Assembly: GCA_037141195.1 (NCBI GenBank) | Contig: JBAXCZ010000001.1 | Coordinates: 36,683-100,682, forward strand | From: Clostridia bacterium | GTDB taxonomy: Bacteria; Bacillota; TC1; JBAXCZ01 | Reading direction: 5' to 3' | Length of the DNA stretch: 64,000 bases | In this document: in pieces, positions 33,001-60,000 of the stretch | Layout of the letters: each line of letters begins with the position of its first letter | Numbering within the stretch: position 1 is the first letter of the stretch | Made by a program: the position numbers

Positions 33001-36000
33001 TTCATTAGCGCACCACAAGAGTTTGGCTATCGCAACAAAGTTACCTATCACTTAGAATGGCGAGGAGCAAAGTTAGTTATAGGATACTTTGGCTTTAATA
33101 GCAATACCCTAATTTCTATTGACCGTTGCCTCTTAGTACCAAAAATATTTGATCAAATTAGTAAGGCTTTTTTGGAAATCCAAGGCAAACAGGAAAAGCG
33201 TGCCAGTTTTTCAGAGCTTACCATAAGACAGGTGAGCAATGGACAAATTATGCTCTTAATTACTGGTAGCAGAGCAGATACGGCTGGGGCAAAACAAATC
33301 ACAGAAGCCTTAGCAAAAGACTATCCAGAAATAGTAAGCTTCTATTATGTTGCTGAGCATAAAGGACTAGAAAGCTACTACCATATTGGTGGCGCAGAGC
33401 ATTTAACAGAAATTATTGGTGGCTTGGAGTTCCAACTTGATGCACCAACCTTTACCCAAGTTAATTATCAACAAATGCAAACCCTGTATCAGCTTGCATT
33501 AGAGCAAGCACAAATTGGGAAAGAGGACTTTGTTTTAGATCTTTATTGCGGCATGGGTAGCATCACCCTACTTGCAGCCCAAAAAGCACAAATTGTGCTA
33601 GGCATAGACAGTGTGAAAGCAGCTATTGGTGCAGCTCAAGATAATGCCATCAAGAACAACATCCACAATGTTAGCTTCCATAGCGGTAGAGTAGAGGTAG
33701 AACTGGACTTCTTACAAAAGCATGTACCGAAAAATAGTATTATCATCCTAGATCCACCCCGTAATGGTTGCGAGCCAAGAGCACTCGAGGCTATTATGGC
33801 ATTAGCACCAAAACGCATAGTCTATATCTCTTGTAGCCCAAGCACCTTAGCAAGAGATGTAAAATATTTTCAAGCACAAGGCATGAAGGTAGAAAAAGTG
33901 CAAGGTGTGGATATGTTTCCAAATACCGGCCATGTTGAGGCGGTTACTTTGCTTACAAGGAGCAACGCGACGCGGTAGGCAATTAGTACCACCCATGCAC
34001 AGTCTGCCCGAGAAAATGAGCATAGCGAAGTTTGATTGGTCGCAGACCACTTCGGAGTGTGTGGTGAAGTTAGAAAAGCGATAAACATAGTAATATCGAT
34101 AGATTAAGCCACTGAGTGTATAAATAACATTCAGTGGCTTTTGTATTTGGGAACATATCTACTGCTCATTCGACAGATTTAGTGAGGTTTATTAATGAAG
34201 TAAATGTTTTATAGTTTAACGTCTAAACCTGTATATCTGCTGAAAAGCATTCACTAGTCCATCTAAAATGAAATCACTTAAACCTTCGTCTGCTTGACGA
34301 TGATTTTCATTAGCTATATAATCTGTGTATAATTAATGTGCCTAATGTTTGAATCATTAACATTAATGGTAATTTGAAAGAAAAAACTTGTTTGATATTG
34401 AATGATGGATACAAAAGCAAAGGAGATTATAATACAACAGTGCAATTTAATTCATTCATGGAGGTTTGCTATGAACATGGATATACAGAAATATAATTTA
34501 TCTCTTTCTGAAATAGATCAAATAATTTGCAGTCTCTTAATGAATGAAATTGATGGGAATTTTCCAGAAATGGTGAGCAAAATCTGGCATGGGAGTCCTG
34601 TCTGGTTTTTAGACGACAATCCGATTGTTGGTTATTGTAAACTTAAAAATCATGTCCAATTACTGTTCTGGAGCGGACAGACTTTTAATGAAGAGGGGCT
34701 AAAATCTGTAGGGAAATATAAGGCAGCCGAAGTATGGTACACAAATCCTGATGAAATAAATGTGGATCAACTAAAGCGATGGCTTATTAAATCAATTGAA
34801 ATTCAATGGGATTATAAAAATGTTGCAAAGCGAAAAGGTGTCTTACAGCGACTTAAGTAAGAGCAGGATTTGTTGATAATCTCTATGTGGATATCATAAA
34901 AGGTATGGGTGTTGAAGTATTTTTGAAATTAGATTCCGGTTAAGTCATATCATCAGAAAGGAGAATTTAATATGATTACTGTATCTACCAAAGTAAAAGG
35001 GTCCTTAGATAGCATATGGGACCATTTTACGAGCCCTGAACATATCATCCATTGGAGTTTTGCTTCAGAAGATTGGCATTCACCTTGGGCAAAAAATGAC
35101 TTGCGAGTAGATGGAAAATTTACGACGCGAATGGAAGCCAAGGACGGCAGTTTTGGATTTGATTTTGAAGGGATTTATGAGGCAGTTGCACCTTATAAAG
35201 GTTATACGTACTCACTTGAAGATGGCCGAAAGATTATTGTCACTTTCGAGGAAGTAGATGGCGGTGTCATTGTTCGTGAAGATTTTGATCCTGAAACTGA
35301 AAATACCCATGAGCGTCAACAATATGGCTGGCAATGTATTTTAGATAACTTTAAGAAATATAGTGAATCATTGGCTATATGAAGTAGCCAATGATACAAA
35401 AATCAATTGTGGAGGTGTTTATGCAAAAAATTGTACCTCATTTATGGTTTGATACACAGGCTTTAGAGGCAGCAGAGCTCTATGCCAGTTTGTTTGATGA
35501 TTCAAAAATTTTGAATACAACAACACTCATCGGCACACCATCGGGGGATGCACAGACTGTGAGCTTTCAACTAGCCGGCATCGAATTTGCAGCGATTAGT
35601 GCCGGCCCGATTTTCACATTCAATTCTTCAATTTCTTTAATGGTGGCGTGTGAAACAAAAGAAGAAGTGAATCGGTTATATGATGCACTGATAAAAGGTG
35701 GAAGTGAGTTAATGCCACTAGATACTTATGATTTTAGTGGGTGGTATGCCTGGATAAGCGACAAATACGGATTGAACTGGCAAATCATGCTGGTTGAAGA
35801 GCTACATGCACATAAAAAAATAAGACCCTGCCTATTATTTGGAATGGAAGTGTGCGGTAAGGCACAAGTAGCTTTGGATCTTTATGTGAGTGTTTTTTCA
35901 GAATCAAAAGTTGGATATGTAAATTTTTATCCCGAAGGTGGCGCAAATGATATTCGGGCAAAAATTAATTATGCAGAGTTAGAGGTCTTTGATCTTGAAA

Positions 36001-57000: not shown

Positions 57001-60000
57001 GCTCAACCGCGATATTCTGAAAAAATTCGGAAAGTAAAAGAGTTCAAAATGCTAGAAAACTCAATTCTAGTCTTGATTAAGTGAGGCAGTCAATCAACCT
57101 AACAGGGACATTATAAGCTATGGATGAATTTTTGACAGAGTGGGAAAATCTCATCATGTTTATCAAGCATGGGCAACTTGCCAATACGCGTTAAGTTGCT
57201 GATGATTTGCTGAAAAGGCTCAGCATGGAGGCGATTAACAACAGATTGCGTGATAGTCGACAAATTACAAATTAGCGAAGGAGTATTTGACTGTAAGAAA
57301 TTTAATATTAGCTAGAAAAAGAGCAAGGCACCCTAAGGTTCAATTCGTAGAGTGCCTTGCTCTTTTTCTGTGTTACGCTGCCTCTTACTCGATTATGCTG
57401 TTCTTATATTCAACTGTGAACTGATTTTCTCCAAATGGTAATGGTAAATTATTATTGCATTTATACTATACAAGTGGTATATTACACATATGCAATATAA
57501 AGGGGTGAAAATATGTCATTAAAACACGGTATTTTAGGGCTCTTAAACTATGGGCCAACCACCGGCTATGACTTAGATAAAATTTTCAAGGGTTCATTGA
57601 ATTTCTTCTGGCAGTCACAAACTAGCCAAATCTATCGGGAACTGAGAGCTATGGAAGGACAAGGTTGGATATCGGCTGAAATTGTTGTACAGCAAGACAA
57701 ACCAAACAAGAATATTTTCACTTTGACTGCTAGTGGAAAGGAAGAATTACAGCGTTGGCTGATGCACGATAGCATCGGAGATGATATCAAAGTTAGAGAC
57801 CCTTTCTTAGTAAAGCTATTTTTTTCTGGAGAAATTAATGCAGAAGCTAATATAGAAACTATGCAGAGATTTAAGCAATGTTGCCAGTACGCTCTTAAAA
57901 AAATCAATGAGACAAAAAAACATGTTGAGGATGCCTATGATGGTGATAAAAACTCTGTTTATTGGGAGATGACAGCTTCCTTTGGGCACTATTATTACGA
58001 AATGTGCATACTATGGGCAGATGAATGTATCATGAAACTGGAGAGATTAAAATGAAAATACTTGTCTTGAATGGAAGTCCGAAGGGTGATAATAGCGTAA
58101 CAATGACCTATATAAAATACCTTAAGATAGTTTTTCCCGAGCACGATTTTAAGGTGAAACATATAGCTCAGTCCATCCATCGATTAGAAAAGGATATGGG
58201 AGCATTTGACGAACTGATAAAAGAGGTAAAGCACAGCGATGTTGTTCTCTGGTCATTCCCACTATATTTTCTCTTGGTTCATGGAAACTACAAAAGGTTT
58301 ATCGAGCTTATCTTCGAAAGAGGACAGCAGGAAGCCTTTGCTGGAAAATACACAGCTGCTTTTTCGACATCTATTCACTTCTATGACCACACAGCTCATA
58401 ACTATCTGCGAGGGATCTGTGAGGATCTAGAGATGAATTTTGTTAATTCCTATTCTGCAGGGATGCAGGATTTACTGAATGGGCAGGAGCGGGATAATTT
58501 GAAGTTATTCATGGATCATCTCGCTTATGCTTTCGAAAATAAATCAGTCACATCAGTAGTTTTTCCCAAGCTCAAACAACCTGAACTTAAATACCAACCA
58601 GCACCGCTGCCAAATAAAATTGACCAAGGAAATCAGAAAATCATCGTACTGACCGATACAGAAAGCATGTCAGACAATCTGCGGAAGATGCTTCAGCGTT
58701 TCCAAGGGAGTTTTAGTAAAGAGCTAGAAGTAGTTGACCTTGCTAAAATCAAAATTGCAGGTGGTTGTCTTGGGTGTTTGAAATGTGGCATGGATAACCA
58801 GTGCGCTTATGATGGGAAAGACGATGTGAGAACAATCTATGAGGAGAAATTAAACAAGGCTGATATTATTGTCTATGCGCTGACGATGAAGGATAGGTAC
58901 TTTTCCGCAAGATGGAAGAGCTTTCTTGACAGGCGGTTCTATAAGACTCATCAGCCAGGATTACCAGGCAAGCAAATTGGCTATCTGATTTCAGGTCCAC
59001 TTTCCTATGAACAAAATTTAAGACAGATTTTACTGGCTTCAGCTGAAATTGACCAGGCAAATCTTGTAGATATTATTACAGATGAATTTACAAGCTCAGA
59101 TCATTTGGACCGAGTTATTTCCGAATTTTCTTATAAGCTTATCAGTAATGGGACCCGAAAGGCAAAGCAACCTAAAACATTTCTTGGGGTTGGTGGCGGA
59201 AAGATTTTTAGAGATGAGATGTGGGGCAATCTACGCTTTATTTTCCAAGCAGATTACAAATACTATAAAAGCCATGGCATGATTGATTTCCCACAGTCGA
59301 ACTTCAGCACTCAATTGATGCATTTATTTATTCCGTTTATCAGACTAAGTCCAATAAAAAAGCAGGTCCAAGAAAGAACAACGGTGATGATGCACAAGGC
59401 TCATGATATGGTGCTTAAGCAAGAGGAAGAGAAGCGAAAGAAACCACATAAAGATTAAAAATAGAAACTGATTGAGAGGTGTAAACGATGCTGGTGGAGC
59501 AAATTGAAAAGTTGATGGAAAAAGCAGCAAAGAAAACAAAAACACTGCAGTTTGCCATGAATCTTCCAACGCTAGGAATAAACTATGCTTATTCTAACAC
59601 AATCCTAAGCCAGCACTTTCATAGTGCTAGCGTAGGGAAACTAATGACATCGACCCTAATTTATATGGCGATAGAATCAGGGAAATTAGCAATAGATACT
59701 CCGGTGAAAAGTATACTGGAATTAGGTGAACTAAACGAGTTTTTTGTATGGGAGGGTAGAGATTTTCAGGATGAAGTATCTATTAAACAGTTGCTAGGGC
59801 ATATGTCCGGAATTAATGACTATTTTGAGAGTAAAACCTTCGACGGGTCTCTTTTTACAGATGAAATAATTAACAAGCCAGAAATATTTTGGAAGCCTAA
59901 TGCTCTATTGGATTATACAAGAAAGCTACAAAAAGCAGTAGCTAAACCTGGGCAAAAATTCTTTTACTCAGATACAGGATATATTCTGCTTGGTCTGATA

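Follow-up and report, generated by a model that had tools for sequence, protein, structure and literature searches.

The 64,000-nucleotide stretch of Clostridia bacterium DNA analyzed in this study (GenBank assembly GCA_037141195.1, contig JBAXCZ010000001.1; hereafter the window) contains an array of small accessory genes directly downstream of rlmD, a rumA-type 23S rRNA methyltransferase gene, and this region is very probably a tandem accretion island formed at an attachment site of large serine recombinases (LSRs) inside the rlmD 3′ end. The sequence examined consisted of the window and its continuation, positions 1–73254. Six crossover points were identified, at 33937–33938 (rlmD), 34055–34056 (B1), 38999–39000 (A1), 40874–40875 (A2), 43258–43259 (A3), and 51107–51108 (B2), and the six junctions delimit units designated U0 to U5, the bounded units U1–U4 being 1.9–7.8 kb long. 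The initial annotation of the window had listed five relics of the rlmD 3′ end in this region and attributed them to repeated site-specific integration into the end of the gene. All five relics were found again at the same positions, and the integration was borne out by a breakpoint at a GA dinucleotide in rlmD and by reassortment of the sequences on the two sides of GA (left and right arms). The assignment to an LSR site rests on three observations: the sister-species sequences break at GA, the A1 left arm, about 94% conserved in 13 further unrelated sequences, loses its similarity to them at GA, and the A-type right arm corresponds to the left end of LSR phages.

The target gene and its attachment site have the following positions.

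32659–33978, plus strand: rlmD, encoding a rumA-type 23S rRNA U5-methyltransferase of 439 amino acid residues, intact, with Pfam domains TRAM and tRNA_U5-meth_tr

33931–33944, plus strand: core CATGTTGAGGCGGT of the left attachment site (attL), with the crossover dinucleotide GA at 33937–33938, assigned from the motif, the comparison with orthologues, and the GA position given in PMC4120198

The core CAYGTNGARDSNGT occurred twice in the window, in rlmD and at A1, against 0.03 occurrences expected. The closest rlmD orthologue, on contig L028, showed 85% amino-acid identity, and its alignment with the window was good up to CAYGTTGAG and absent beyond. The sister-species contigs L028 and L080 were 100% identical over 1.2 kb of rlmD up to GA and only 23–25% identical, as expected at random, directly 3′ of it, and contig L081 had a third distinct sequence at this position, giving at least three different continuations 3′ of the rlmD GA in the sister species. 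Identity between the window and the sister-species contigs was 80–88% before GA and 22–42% after it; for the last 200 nt before GA it was 88%, compared with 23–42% after GA. The sister-species contigs examined at this site included L028, L080, L081, and L082. Five sister-species contigs carrying rlmD or its upstream neighbor stop within or shortly after rlmD, and a sixth stops just upstream of it. The varied continuations and the contig ends at rlmD indicate that the GA site is polymorphic in natural populations of the sister species and is a recurrent source of assembly breaks. Within the species of the window, no polymorphism was found, all retrievable contigs having one and the same gene order.

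Because the sister-species orthologues part from the window just after 33938/33939, the last 13 rlmD codons (33939–33978) appear to come from an inserted element. The ending HVE[TC]VVLMSRVEK is shared by many otherwise unrelated RlmD proteins in databases and by the relics of family A described below, which was the first hint that it is supplied by mobile DNA. The insertion lies directly after the GA of the GAG codon for Glu of HVE, and the left end of the element restores an in-frame RumA C-terminus, rlmD being full length. In rumA, the LSR crossover takes place at the GA of the GAG codon, the 11th from the stop (PMC4120198). The initial annotation was therefore right in linking the locus to the streptococcal rumA hotspot, which uses this same GA, and mistaken in supposing a different attachment site.

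Two families of repeats were found 3′ of rlmD, and members of both reproduce a RumA/RlmD gene end with a terminator behind it. Family A is made up of three copies, at 38969–39188 (A1), 40844–41066 (A2), and approximately 43160–43385 (A3); A1 and A2 were 83% identical over 199 nt, and A3 was about 70% identical to both. Family B consists of 33990–34144 (B1) and 51042–51194 (B2), which were 82.6% identical over 155 nt, and of a partial third copy at 37432–37518 (B3) that retains only the terminator and the end motif. B3 explains the block boundary at 37.2/37.7 kb, for which no relic had been listed earlier. The two B copies had been taken for more decayed versions of the A ending and actually represent a different tail family.

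The tails EAVTLLTRSNATR, EAVILMSRVNK, EAVVLTSRVNK, ECVVKLEKR, and EAVVKVERR, each followed by a stop codon, fit the C-terminal profile of RlmD homologues, and the relic tails extend 8–12 codons beyond the Glu codon. When this profile, built from the C-termini of 119 RlmD homologues, was scanned against 4176 six-frame segments of the window, A1 was the top match outside rlmD (E 1e-4), and A2, B1, and A3 were within the next eight matches (E 1–2). The relics therefore exceed chance by the profile, and their external homologues (the Acetoanaerobium noterae rumA end, IMG/VR contigs, a phage, and a plasmid) are decisive in this respect. The 27-nt DNA match between 40871–40897 and rlmD that had been put forward in the initial annotation, 19 of 27 positions with an 11-mer, was not significant alone. 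A protein scan for RlmD on one-genome-per-species contigs yielded paralogues of about 30% identity and no close relative, and the C-terminal profile detected no clear relic array at those loci, the best being a weak match in Lactonifactor.

Terminators were present after B1 and B2 and also after A1, A2, and B3 (z about −4), and the one after A3 was weak; the earlier statement that a terminator follows each relic thus held for B1, B2, A1, and A2, and for A3 in weak form. Each repeat reaches 60–150 nt to the left of the relic, and this part is a conserved element end, not rlmD sequence. The relics are hybrid junctions and not the simple displaced copies of the target end initially proposed, the left end of the downstream element imitating the RumA tail. 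GATATGTTCCC-like motifs occurred to the left of junctions in forward orientation only and to the right in inverted orientation only, both in the window and at external sites, and the inverted end motif GGGAACATATC is the reverse complement of GATATGTTCCC in rlmD and in the left arms. The element ends accordingly carry imperfect terminal inverted repeats, and the opposite arrangement was never seen. This orientation fits the imperfect terminal inverted repeats reported for rumA elements (PMC4120198). Dyad symmetry around the GA of A1 was weak (7/23 positions by hand count) and was not taken as evidence.

The units and junctions of the array, with the Pfam assignments of their cargo, are as follows.

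33939–34056, plus strand: U0, 118 nt without cargo, made up of the rlmD tail EAVTLLTRSNATR with its stop codon, 11 nt, and a 67-nt B-type left arm

33990–34056: B-type left arm of U0, ending at GA 34055–34056; the boundary of the homology with A. noterae begins at 34054

34057–34164, plus strand: right-arm module of B1, with tail CVVKLEKR and stop to 34084, terminator 34106–34140, and GGGAACATATC at 34149–34159

U1, 4.9 kb: seven genes, with the decayed B3 junction inside

34402–38901, plus strand: cargo of U1, DUF1801, AHSA1-like, 3-dmu-9_3-mt, DUF1761, glyoxalase, SOUL, and metallo-beta-lactamase fold

37432–37518, plus strand: B3, decayed B-type right-arm module, with terminator and end motif at 37504, probably marking a lost junction inside U1

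38942–39000, plus strand: left arm of A1, the right end of U1, ending at GA 38999–39000

39001–39188, plus strand: right-arm module of A1, with tail AVILMSRVNK and stop to 39034, terminator 39051–39112, and conserved left-end sequence

U2, 1.9 kb: two genes

39298–40544, plus strand: cargo of U2, a DUF1214 protein and a DUF1254 protein

40726–40875, plus strand: left arm of A2, with DMFP-like motifs GATATGTTCCC at 40734 and GAAATGTTCCC at about 40762, ending at GA 40874–40875

40876–41113, plus strand: right-arm module of A2, with tail AVVLTSRVNK and stop to 40909, terminator 40926–40989, and inverted end motif at 40998

U3, 2.4 kb: three genes

41304–43081, plus strand: cargo of U3, a 236-amino-acid protein of unassigned function, DUF7000, and AHSA1-like

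43160–43385, plus strand: A3 junction, decayed, with left arm PIDIFSRTQG, a tail with in-frame stops, and a weak terminator

U4, 7.8 kb: six genes

43611–51025, plus strand: cargo of U4, FMN reductase, DUF1254-DUF1214, DUF3089, metallophosphatase, a second SOUL gene, and GGDEF

51042–51194, plus strand: B2 junction, with left arm 51042–51108 (GA 51107–51108), tail AVVKVERR and stop to 51136, and terminator 51156–51190

51296–55969, plus strand: cargo of U5, Fic, two proteins of unassigned function, AbiEi-like/AbiEii, and Imm5-like

The units carry only small accessory genes with detoxification, stress, signaling, toxin-antitoxin, and regulatory functions, and their G+C content differs, for example 0.42–0.43 in U2 compared with 0.34–0.35 in U3. 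The SOUL heme-binding genes of U1 (37609–38187) and U4 (48843–49422) were 98% identical, together with about 75 nt upstream, whereas the junction repeats around them were only about 82% identical, which points to a recent duplication or gene conversion within the island. In U2, DUF1214 and DUF1254 are encoded by adjacent genes in the reverse order of the DUF1254-DUF1214 fusion of U4. A recent circular permutation of the fused gene of U4 (44341–45756) into the U2 pair was considered and rejected, the proteins being only 33–36% identical.

U5 is the last recognizable unit, and its genes are of the toxin-antitoxin and defense type. Homologues of the N-terminal 50–70 residues of its Fic protein are encoded just 3′ of rumA junctions in contig L006 and in A. 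noterae. The Fic gene (51296) is closely preceded by a perfect TTGACA-17-TATAAT promoter, and a 48-nt near-perfect palindrome at 51236–51286, which overlaps this promoter, looks like an operator for autoregulation. Nothing was found at 57369 to mark that position, where the initial annotation had placed the end of the array.

Homologues of the arms were found in other genomes. By BLAST, the A1 left arm was 91.5% identical over 59 nt to A. noterae (genome record: PLSDB entry, plasmid pTPELB2, 2.63 Mb), with 40/41 positions identical in the proximal part, and the match stopped exactly at GA, with a different tail beyond. A pattern derived from this arm was present in 11 JGI metagenome contigs and 2 viral contigs. 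In a set of 12 sequences including the window, from which near-duplicate contigs had been dropped, the mean pairwise identity of the A1-type left arm was 0.94 at −41 to −1 and 0.78 at −61 to −42, and it dropped to 0.49, 0.35, and 0.28 on the right-hand side of GA, which was occupied by at least eight different right arms. The A1-type left arm began about 62–66 nt before GA in five different cargo contexts.

The A right arm, consisting of tail, terminator, and conserved left-end sequence, was found in 15 stretches from 14 IMG/VR contigs with a relaxed pattern, a first viral pattern having been too strict (0 matches), and also in a phage genome and an Enterococcus faecalis plasmid. Two of the 15 stretches (in L037 and L042) were attL sites with intact rumA, and the others had varied left arms; identity in this set was 0.87 to the right of GA and 0.28–0.38 beyond −10. 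The A2 right-arm module was 69% identical over 255 nt to the attL of viral contig L042, the A2 left arm was 77% identical over 69 nt to site 1 of L043 and also matched phage L031, and A3, in whose core GA is mutated to TA (43258–43259), was 71% identical over 122 nt to the site on the E. faecalis plasmid. As judged from these alignments, left and right arms evidently reassort independently at GA across unrelated genomes.

The B right arm was 78% identical over 115 nt to the genuine A. noterae rumA 3′ end with its terminator (HVECVVKLEKR and stop) and 77% identical to sequences to the right of junctions in L049 (two sites), L054, and L058. In all five comparisons, the homology ended at window positions 34163–34172, just past the inverted GGGAACATATC. 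An AT-rich pattern taken from the B right arm gave 20 matches, all by chance, and was discarded.

LSR genes adjoin several of these sites. In the gut phage PV036457.1 (Ca. Heliusvirales; a complete genome according to its record), the two arms flank GA without interruption, forming a site like a phage attachment site (attP), and the phage encodes two LSRs, one of which is 59% identical to the LSR of L043. In L053 and L056, the A1-type arm is immediately preceded by an LSR gene; in L043 such a gene is located about 5 kb upstream of a junction, and in L044 within 1 kb upstream of the junction. These homologies show a phage/LSR ancestry of the arms. A 7.6-kb unit of A. noterae has a B-type left end, an A1-type right end, and LSR remnants without the catalytic domain, and a 2.8-kb unit of L058 has the same B-type left and A1-type right ends and no LSR; U1 of the window has the same pair of ends as these two units and different cargo. 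The DUF7000 gene of U3 was 83% identical at the DNA level over 509 nt to an L053 gene about 350 nt past the junction. A more extended left-end homology between A2 and L053 is not claimed, since BLAST supported only 22 nt and the DUF7000 gene.

Comparable arrays of small recombinase-less units were recovered in five or six other contigs by two pattern scans and one BLAST search. The array in the window is thus one instance of a recurrent architecture and is less unusual than first thought. Related loci are listed below.

L043 (IMGVR_UViG_3300028634_000502), 10231–100, minus strand: LSR, MFS transporter, ABC-F, GrpB, Vat-like hexapeptide acetyltransferase, junction 1, three genes (unassigned, MarR, SDR), and junction 2

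L052: rumA, 2.1 kb, site

L049: rumA fragment, 1.6 kb, site, 4.2 kb, second site

L044: rumA, 1.8-kb unit with LSR alone, site

L030, the E. faecalis plasmid LR962847.1, 5058–8918: aminoglycoside resistance gene spw, at most about 50 nt, complete A-type junction

The resistance-type cargo of L043 has the LSR gene on one side and the element's right arm on the other. The junction of LR962847.1 has DMFP-like motifs, HVETVVLMSRVDK with a stop, and a terminator, and is followed on the 3′ side by fragments of VirE-like, VRR-NUC, SNF2, and serine recombinase genes, pieces of an LSR phage or ICE, a layout which indicates that spw is at the right end of a remnant of a rumA-type LSR element.

A small open reading frame (ORF) ending in RQGTNGSSRHHFCLLKAR and a stop runs across the A1-type left arm in L053 (1888–2043) and also in L052 and L058. 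Its TGA stop is formed by the GTTGA core, so that recombination would alter the end of the ORF. The ORF could reflect nothing more than conservation of the DNA, or it could encode a small factor of the element.

The copies of both families are intergenic and accompanied by hairpins, and the island contains one recent internal duplication, that of the 98% identical SOUL gene. These features would also be produced by dispersed intergenic repeats, similar to repetitive extragenic palindromes or miniature inverted-repeat transposable elements, or by local segmental duplications with a terminator, whose likeness to the rlmD end arose by chance. This explanation is largely refuted, and we regard it as very improbable: within the approximately 73 kb examined, all A and B copies are located downstream of rlmD, LSR-phage attL and attP-like sites as well as real rumA ends match them, and the similarity between genomes switches exactly at GA. 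Rfam and tRNA scans gave no match in the array, so the repeats belong to no known RNA family and do not represent a tRNA target.

Genes that could move the units were searched for in the same sequence. Pfam scans covered the main ORFs of the window, with a precomputed Pfam listing used for 21.6–29.6 kb, and the results for the window ORFs contained no integrase, transposase, or relaxase; tblastn with an LSR query gave no match in the window nor in the stretch 52371–73254. A gene with the Resolvase, Recombinase, and Zn-ribbon domains of an LSR was thus not found in 1–73254, and such genes were present in the related loci L043, L053/L056, L044, and L042 and in phage PV036457.1. These results agree with the earlier observation that the blocks lack a recombinase. 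No gene remnants of an autonomous integrative and conjugative element (ICE) or integrative and mobilizable element (IME) were found inside the units. Each of U1–U4 lies between two junctions and contains accessory genes and no integration or transfer genes, as is characteristic of cis-mobilizable elements (CIMEs), and the comparison with CIMEs made in the initial annotation was therefore apt. Since no recombinase is encoded, the units are either deletion derivatives or non-autonomous elements. An intermediate in A. noterae, whose two end types are the same and whose LSR is truncated, suggests that the units arose by deletion from elements with an LSR, in the manner of CIMEs or pseudo-SCC elements (SCC, staphylococcal cassette chromosome).

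The genes of the array are co-oriented and arranged in small blocks, each followed by a repeat, as in the cassette arrays of integrons or of CALINs (clusters of attC sites lacking integron integrases); an island of a tyrosine recombinase that duplicates the end of its target gene would look similar. Such an origin is not supported and is scarcely credible. The Pfam results for the window ORFs contained no IntI or other tyrosine recombinase, and the sites show the core and arms of an LSR system in place of an attC architecture. They are homologous to attP and attL sites of LSRs, and in other genomes the homologous sites adjoin LSR genes. The units contain 2–7 genes, each unit being opened by a terminator, and the co-orientation fits equally well the direction of replication near oriC. 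The integron-like logic suggested in the initial annotation was accordingly abandoned.

Accretion at the rlmD LSR site would proceed as follows. For phages, ICEs, IMEs, and their derivatives, the crossover of integration would fall at GA within the GAG codon of ...HVE.... With its left end, each newcomer would bring a substitute RumA tail and a terminator, so that rlmD would stay intact, and a later element would enter the rebuilt gene end and shift the earlier elements downstream. Each internal boundary should then consist of the right arm of the upstream element, GA, and the left arm of the downstream element, and be attP-like. The order predicted in this way, gene-GA-P′1...P1-GA-P′2...P2-GA-..., corresponds to the array observed. 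Of the junctions, the better preserved A1, A2, B1, and B2 could still serve an incoming LSR, and the decayed junctions A3 and B3 probably could not.

Several points weigh against accretion at this site. With no LSR gene in 1–73254, nothing local could move the units. The native rlmD tail, which integration should have displaced to the far end of the array, was not detected, no further junction, tail, or LSR was present between 51.2 and 73 kb, and the end of the island is thus undefined. No gain or loss of a unit, empty site, or circular junction was detected, all retrievable contigs of the species having the same array. The B-type left arm had no homologue outside the window among plasmids, phages, and viral contigs, and U0, too small for a mobile unit, must be what a deletion left behind. 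The pair attP and attL is normally not a substrate of LSRs, and stacking beside a resident element would need a left arm that imitates the bacterial attachment site (attB), as the published tandem insertions suggest. The recurring limits of the arm modules could merely mark the end of family-wide conservation.

The whole island, or most of it, might have been assembled elsewhere and have arrived as a composite in one integration. Transfer of composite tandems is documented for ICE-CIME pairs (PMC5704250), two B-type junctions 17 kb apart flank the island internally, and the array is common to all sampled contigs of the species. We consider a single acquisition unlikely, because identities of only 82.6% between B1 and B2 and 83% between A1 and A2 indicate that the junctions are old or separately derived, the G+C content differs from unit to unit, and the first junction has its own tail type. 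It would in any case change only the place of accretion, not the mechanism.

Alternatively, the units could be live cassettes, that is, non-autonomous mini-elements still cut out and inserted in trans by LSRs of phages or ICEs, resident or incoming, with rlmD as a gene-capture platform of integron-like function and serine-recombinase chemistry. The same pair of ends surrounds unrelated cargo in three organisms (U1 of the window, L058, and A. noterae), the arms have discrete recurring limits (about 62–66 nt for the left arm and 34163–34172 for the B right arm), the arm of A1 equals the widely conserved arm at 40/41 positions, the DUF7000 cargo gene recurs beside a junction in L053 with 83% DNA identity, and resistance-type genes adjoin such arms, namely spw on the E. 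faecalis plasmid and Vat-like, ABC-F, and MFS genes in L043. However, the retrievable contigs of the species contained no excision product, empty site, or unit-level polymorphism, no LSR is encoded in 1–73254, the junctions A3 and B3 show clear decay, nothing but an empty remnant is left of U0, simple decay is seen to yield such units in the A. noterae case with its truncated LSR, and the terminator that opens each unit excludes an integron-type logic of shared expression. We therefore regard live cassettes as possible but doubtful; the discrete arm limits and the reuse of ends with different cargo are compatible with mobilization in trans and are no proof of it. It is, with similar reserve, conceivable that Clostridia have widespread tiny recombinase-less cassettes, with a left module of about 110–240 nt that imitates the RumA tail and a right module of at least about 64 nt, inserted and excised in trans at rlmD by LSRs belonging to temperate phages and ICEs. 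If so, the rlmD locus would be a serine-recombinase counterpart of the integron or SCC platform and, at another rRNA methyltransferase gene, a second system of the SCC kind, phages might also spread the cassettes, as the junctions match phage attP sites, and one route would be given by which spw, Vat-like, and ABC-F genes reach the plasmids of pathogens.

Accretion of recombinase-less units, which we favor, uses a known mechanism, the LSR hotspot in rumA; the new features are the many tiny recombinase-less units, their modular phage-related ends, and their recurrence in metagenomes. Descriptions of the rumA/rlmD hotspot have hitherto dealt mostly with streptococci and enterococci and their large, resistance-carrying ICEs and phages. 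The vanG elements and ICE-r insert at the rumA GA, also in tandem, and encode a substitute tail in their left ends (PMC4120198), and the single serine integrases of streptococcal ICEs and IMEs target rumA, the same site being used by CTn5 of C. difficile (PMC4701971, PMC5704250). The window array resembles these elements (vanG elements, ICE-r, ICE_rumA, IME_rumA, and CTn5) in target gene family, GA crossover, replacement tail, tandem insertion, imperfect inverted repeats at the ends, and homologous sites beside LSR genes. It differs from them in that they encode a recombinase and are 16–100 kb in size as described, whereas the window units encode none and measure 0.1–7.8 kb, in that its right arm forms a non-coding module of its own, about 64 nt long, and is not part of the LSR reading frame, and in that its host belongs to an uncultured Clostridia lineage. 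At the same site in uncultured Clostridia, strings of very small units without a recombinase are thus gathered, and their modular ends recur with different cargo in unrelated genomes.

CIMEs, described together with accretion at sites of the ICESt1/ICESt3 type (PMC5704250), are likewise units bounded by attachment sites that have lost integration and transfer genes. Unlike the window units, classic CIMEs depend on tyrosine recombinases and have true direct repeats of the target end; the window units would involve serine-recombinase chemistry, a 2-bp crossover, and hybrid arms. In Dehalobacter, the rumA 3′ end bounds a nested hypervariable island of stacked mobile elements (PMC11578063). That island shares with the window a Clostridia host and the boundary at the rumA end, but it is 100–400 kb in size and rich in recombinases, whereas the window array has small units and no recombinase. 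By analogy, the closest concepts are CIME accretion and the composite SCC islands of staphylococci with ccr-less pseudo-SCC elements.

SCC islands at orfX/rlmH are cassette arrays with repeats that reproduce the gene end, and some of their cassettes lack ccr and rely on a recombinase supplied in trans. The features that SCC and pseudo-SCC islands (for example bioRxiv 10.1101/336396; PMC12648241) have in common with the window are LSR-type recombination, the 3′ end of an rRNA methyltransferase gene as the site, several cassettes between gene-end repeats, some without recombinase, and accessory or resistance cargo. SCC elements differ in targeting rlmH by CcrAB/CcrC, whereas the window array is at rlmD and has no recombinase, and the hosts, the recombinase clade, and the relationship of the window arms to temperate-phage attP also separate the two, so the likeness is one of analogy, not of membership.

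Standard tools that search for integrases would miss such islands, and the layout of the junctions (left arm, GA, tail mimic, terminator, and inverted motif) could be used to delimit them automatically. The position of spw directly at a junction on an E. faecalis multiresistance plasmid shows that junction-flanked cargo reaches clinical replicons and hints that such units are a source of accessory and resistance genes for replicons of clinical relevance.

The window opens with the chromosomal replication origin: yidC and rnpA are on the minus strand and dnaA (2478–3869), dnaN, and recF on the plus strand, spanning 164–6561, and the minimum of the cumulative GC skew is at about 3 kb. Genes for fatty-acid synthesis and further housekeeping functions follow the origin genes. 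The distance from oriC to the rlmD array is only about 30 kb, and the uniform orientation of the array genes is that of replication. Small accessory genes, almost all on the plus strand, continue 3′ of rlmD at least to position 73254.

Upstream of rlmD are a SCIFF/radical-SAM pair, an ABC-F gene, and a gene for an SF0329-family protein. Protein P0243, which is 81% identical to the SF0329-family protein, is encoded in non-syntenic surroundings that lack rlmD, and was set aside as uninformative. The 32-nt repeat TTTWTTATTCTTTACTAGACACTAGGRAAAAA occurs at 29887–29918, just 3′ of the ABC-F gene, and at 32577–32608, about 50 nt 5′ of the rlmD start codon, and its copies are 94% identical. One RNA feature was detected near the origin.

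7688–7862: malK-I RNA motif (Rfam RF03069, 94.7 bits), directly 5′ of a MalK-like ABC ATPase gene (7857–8975)

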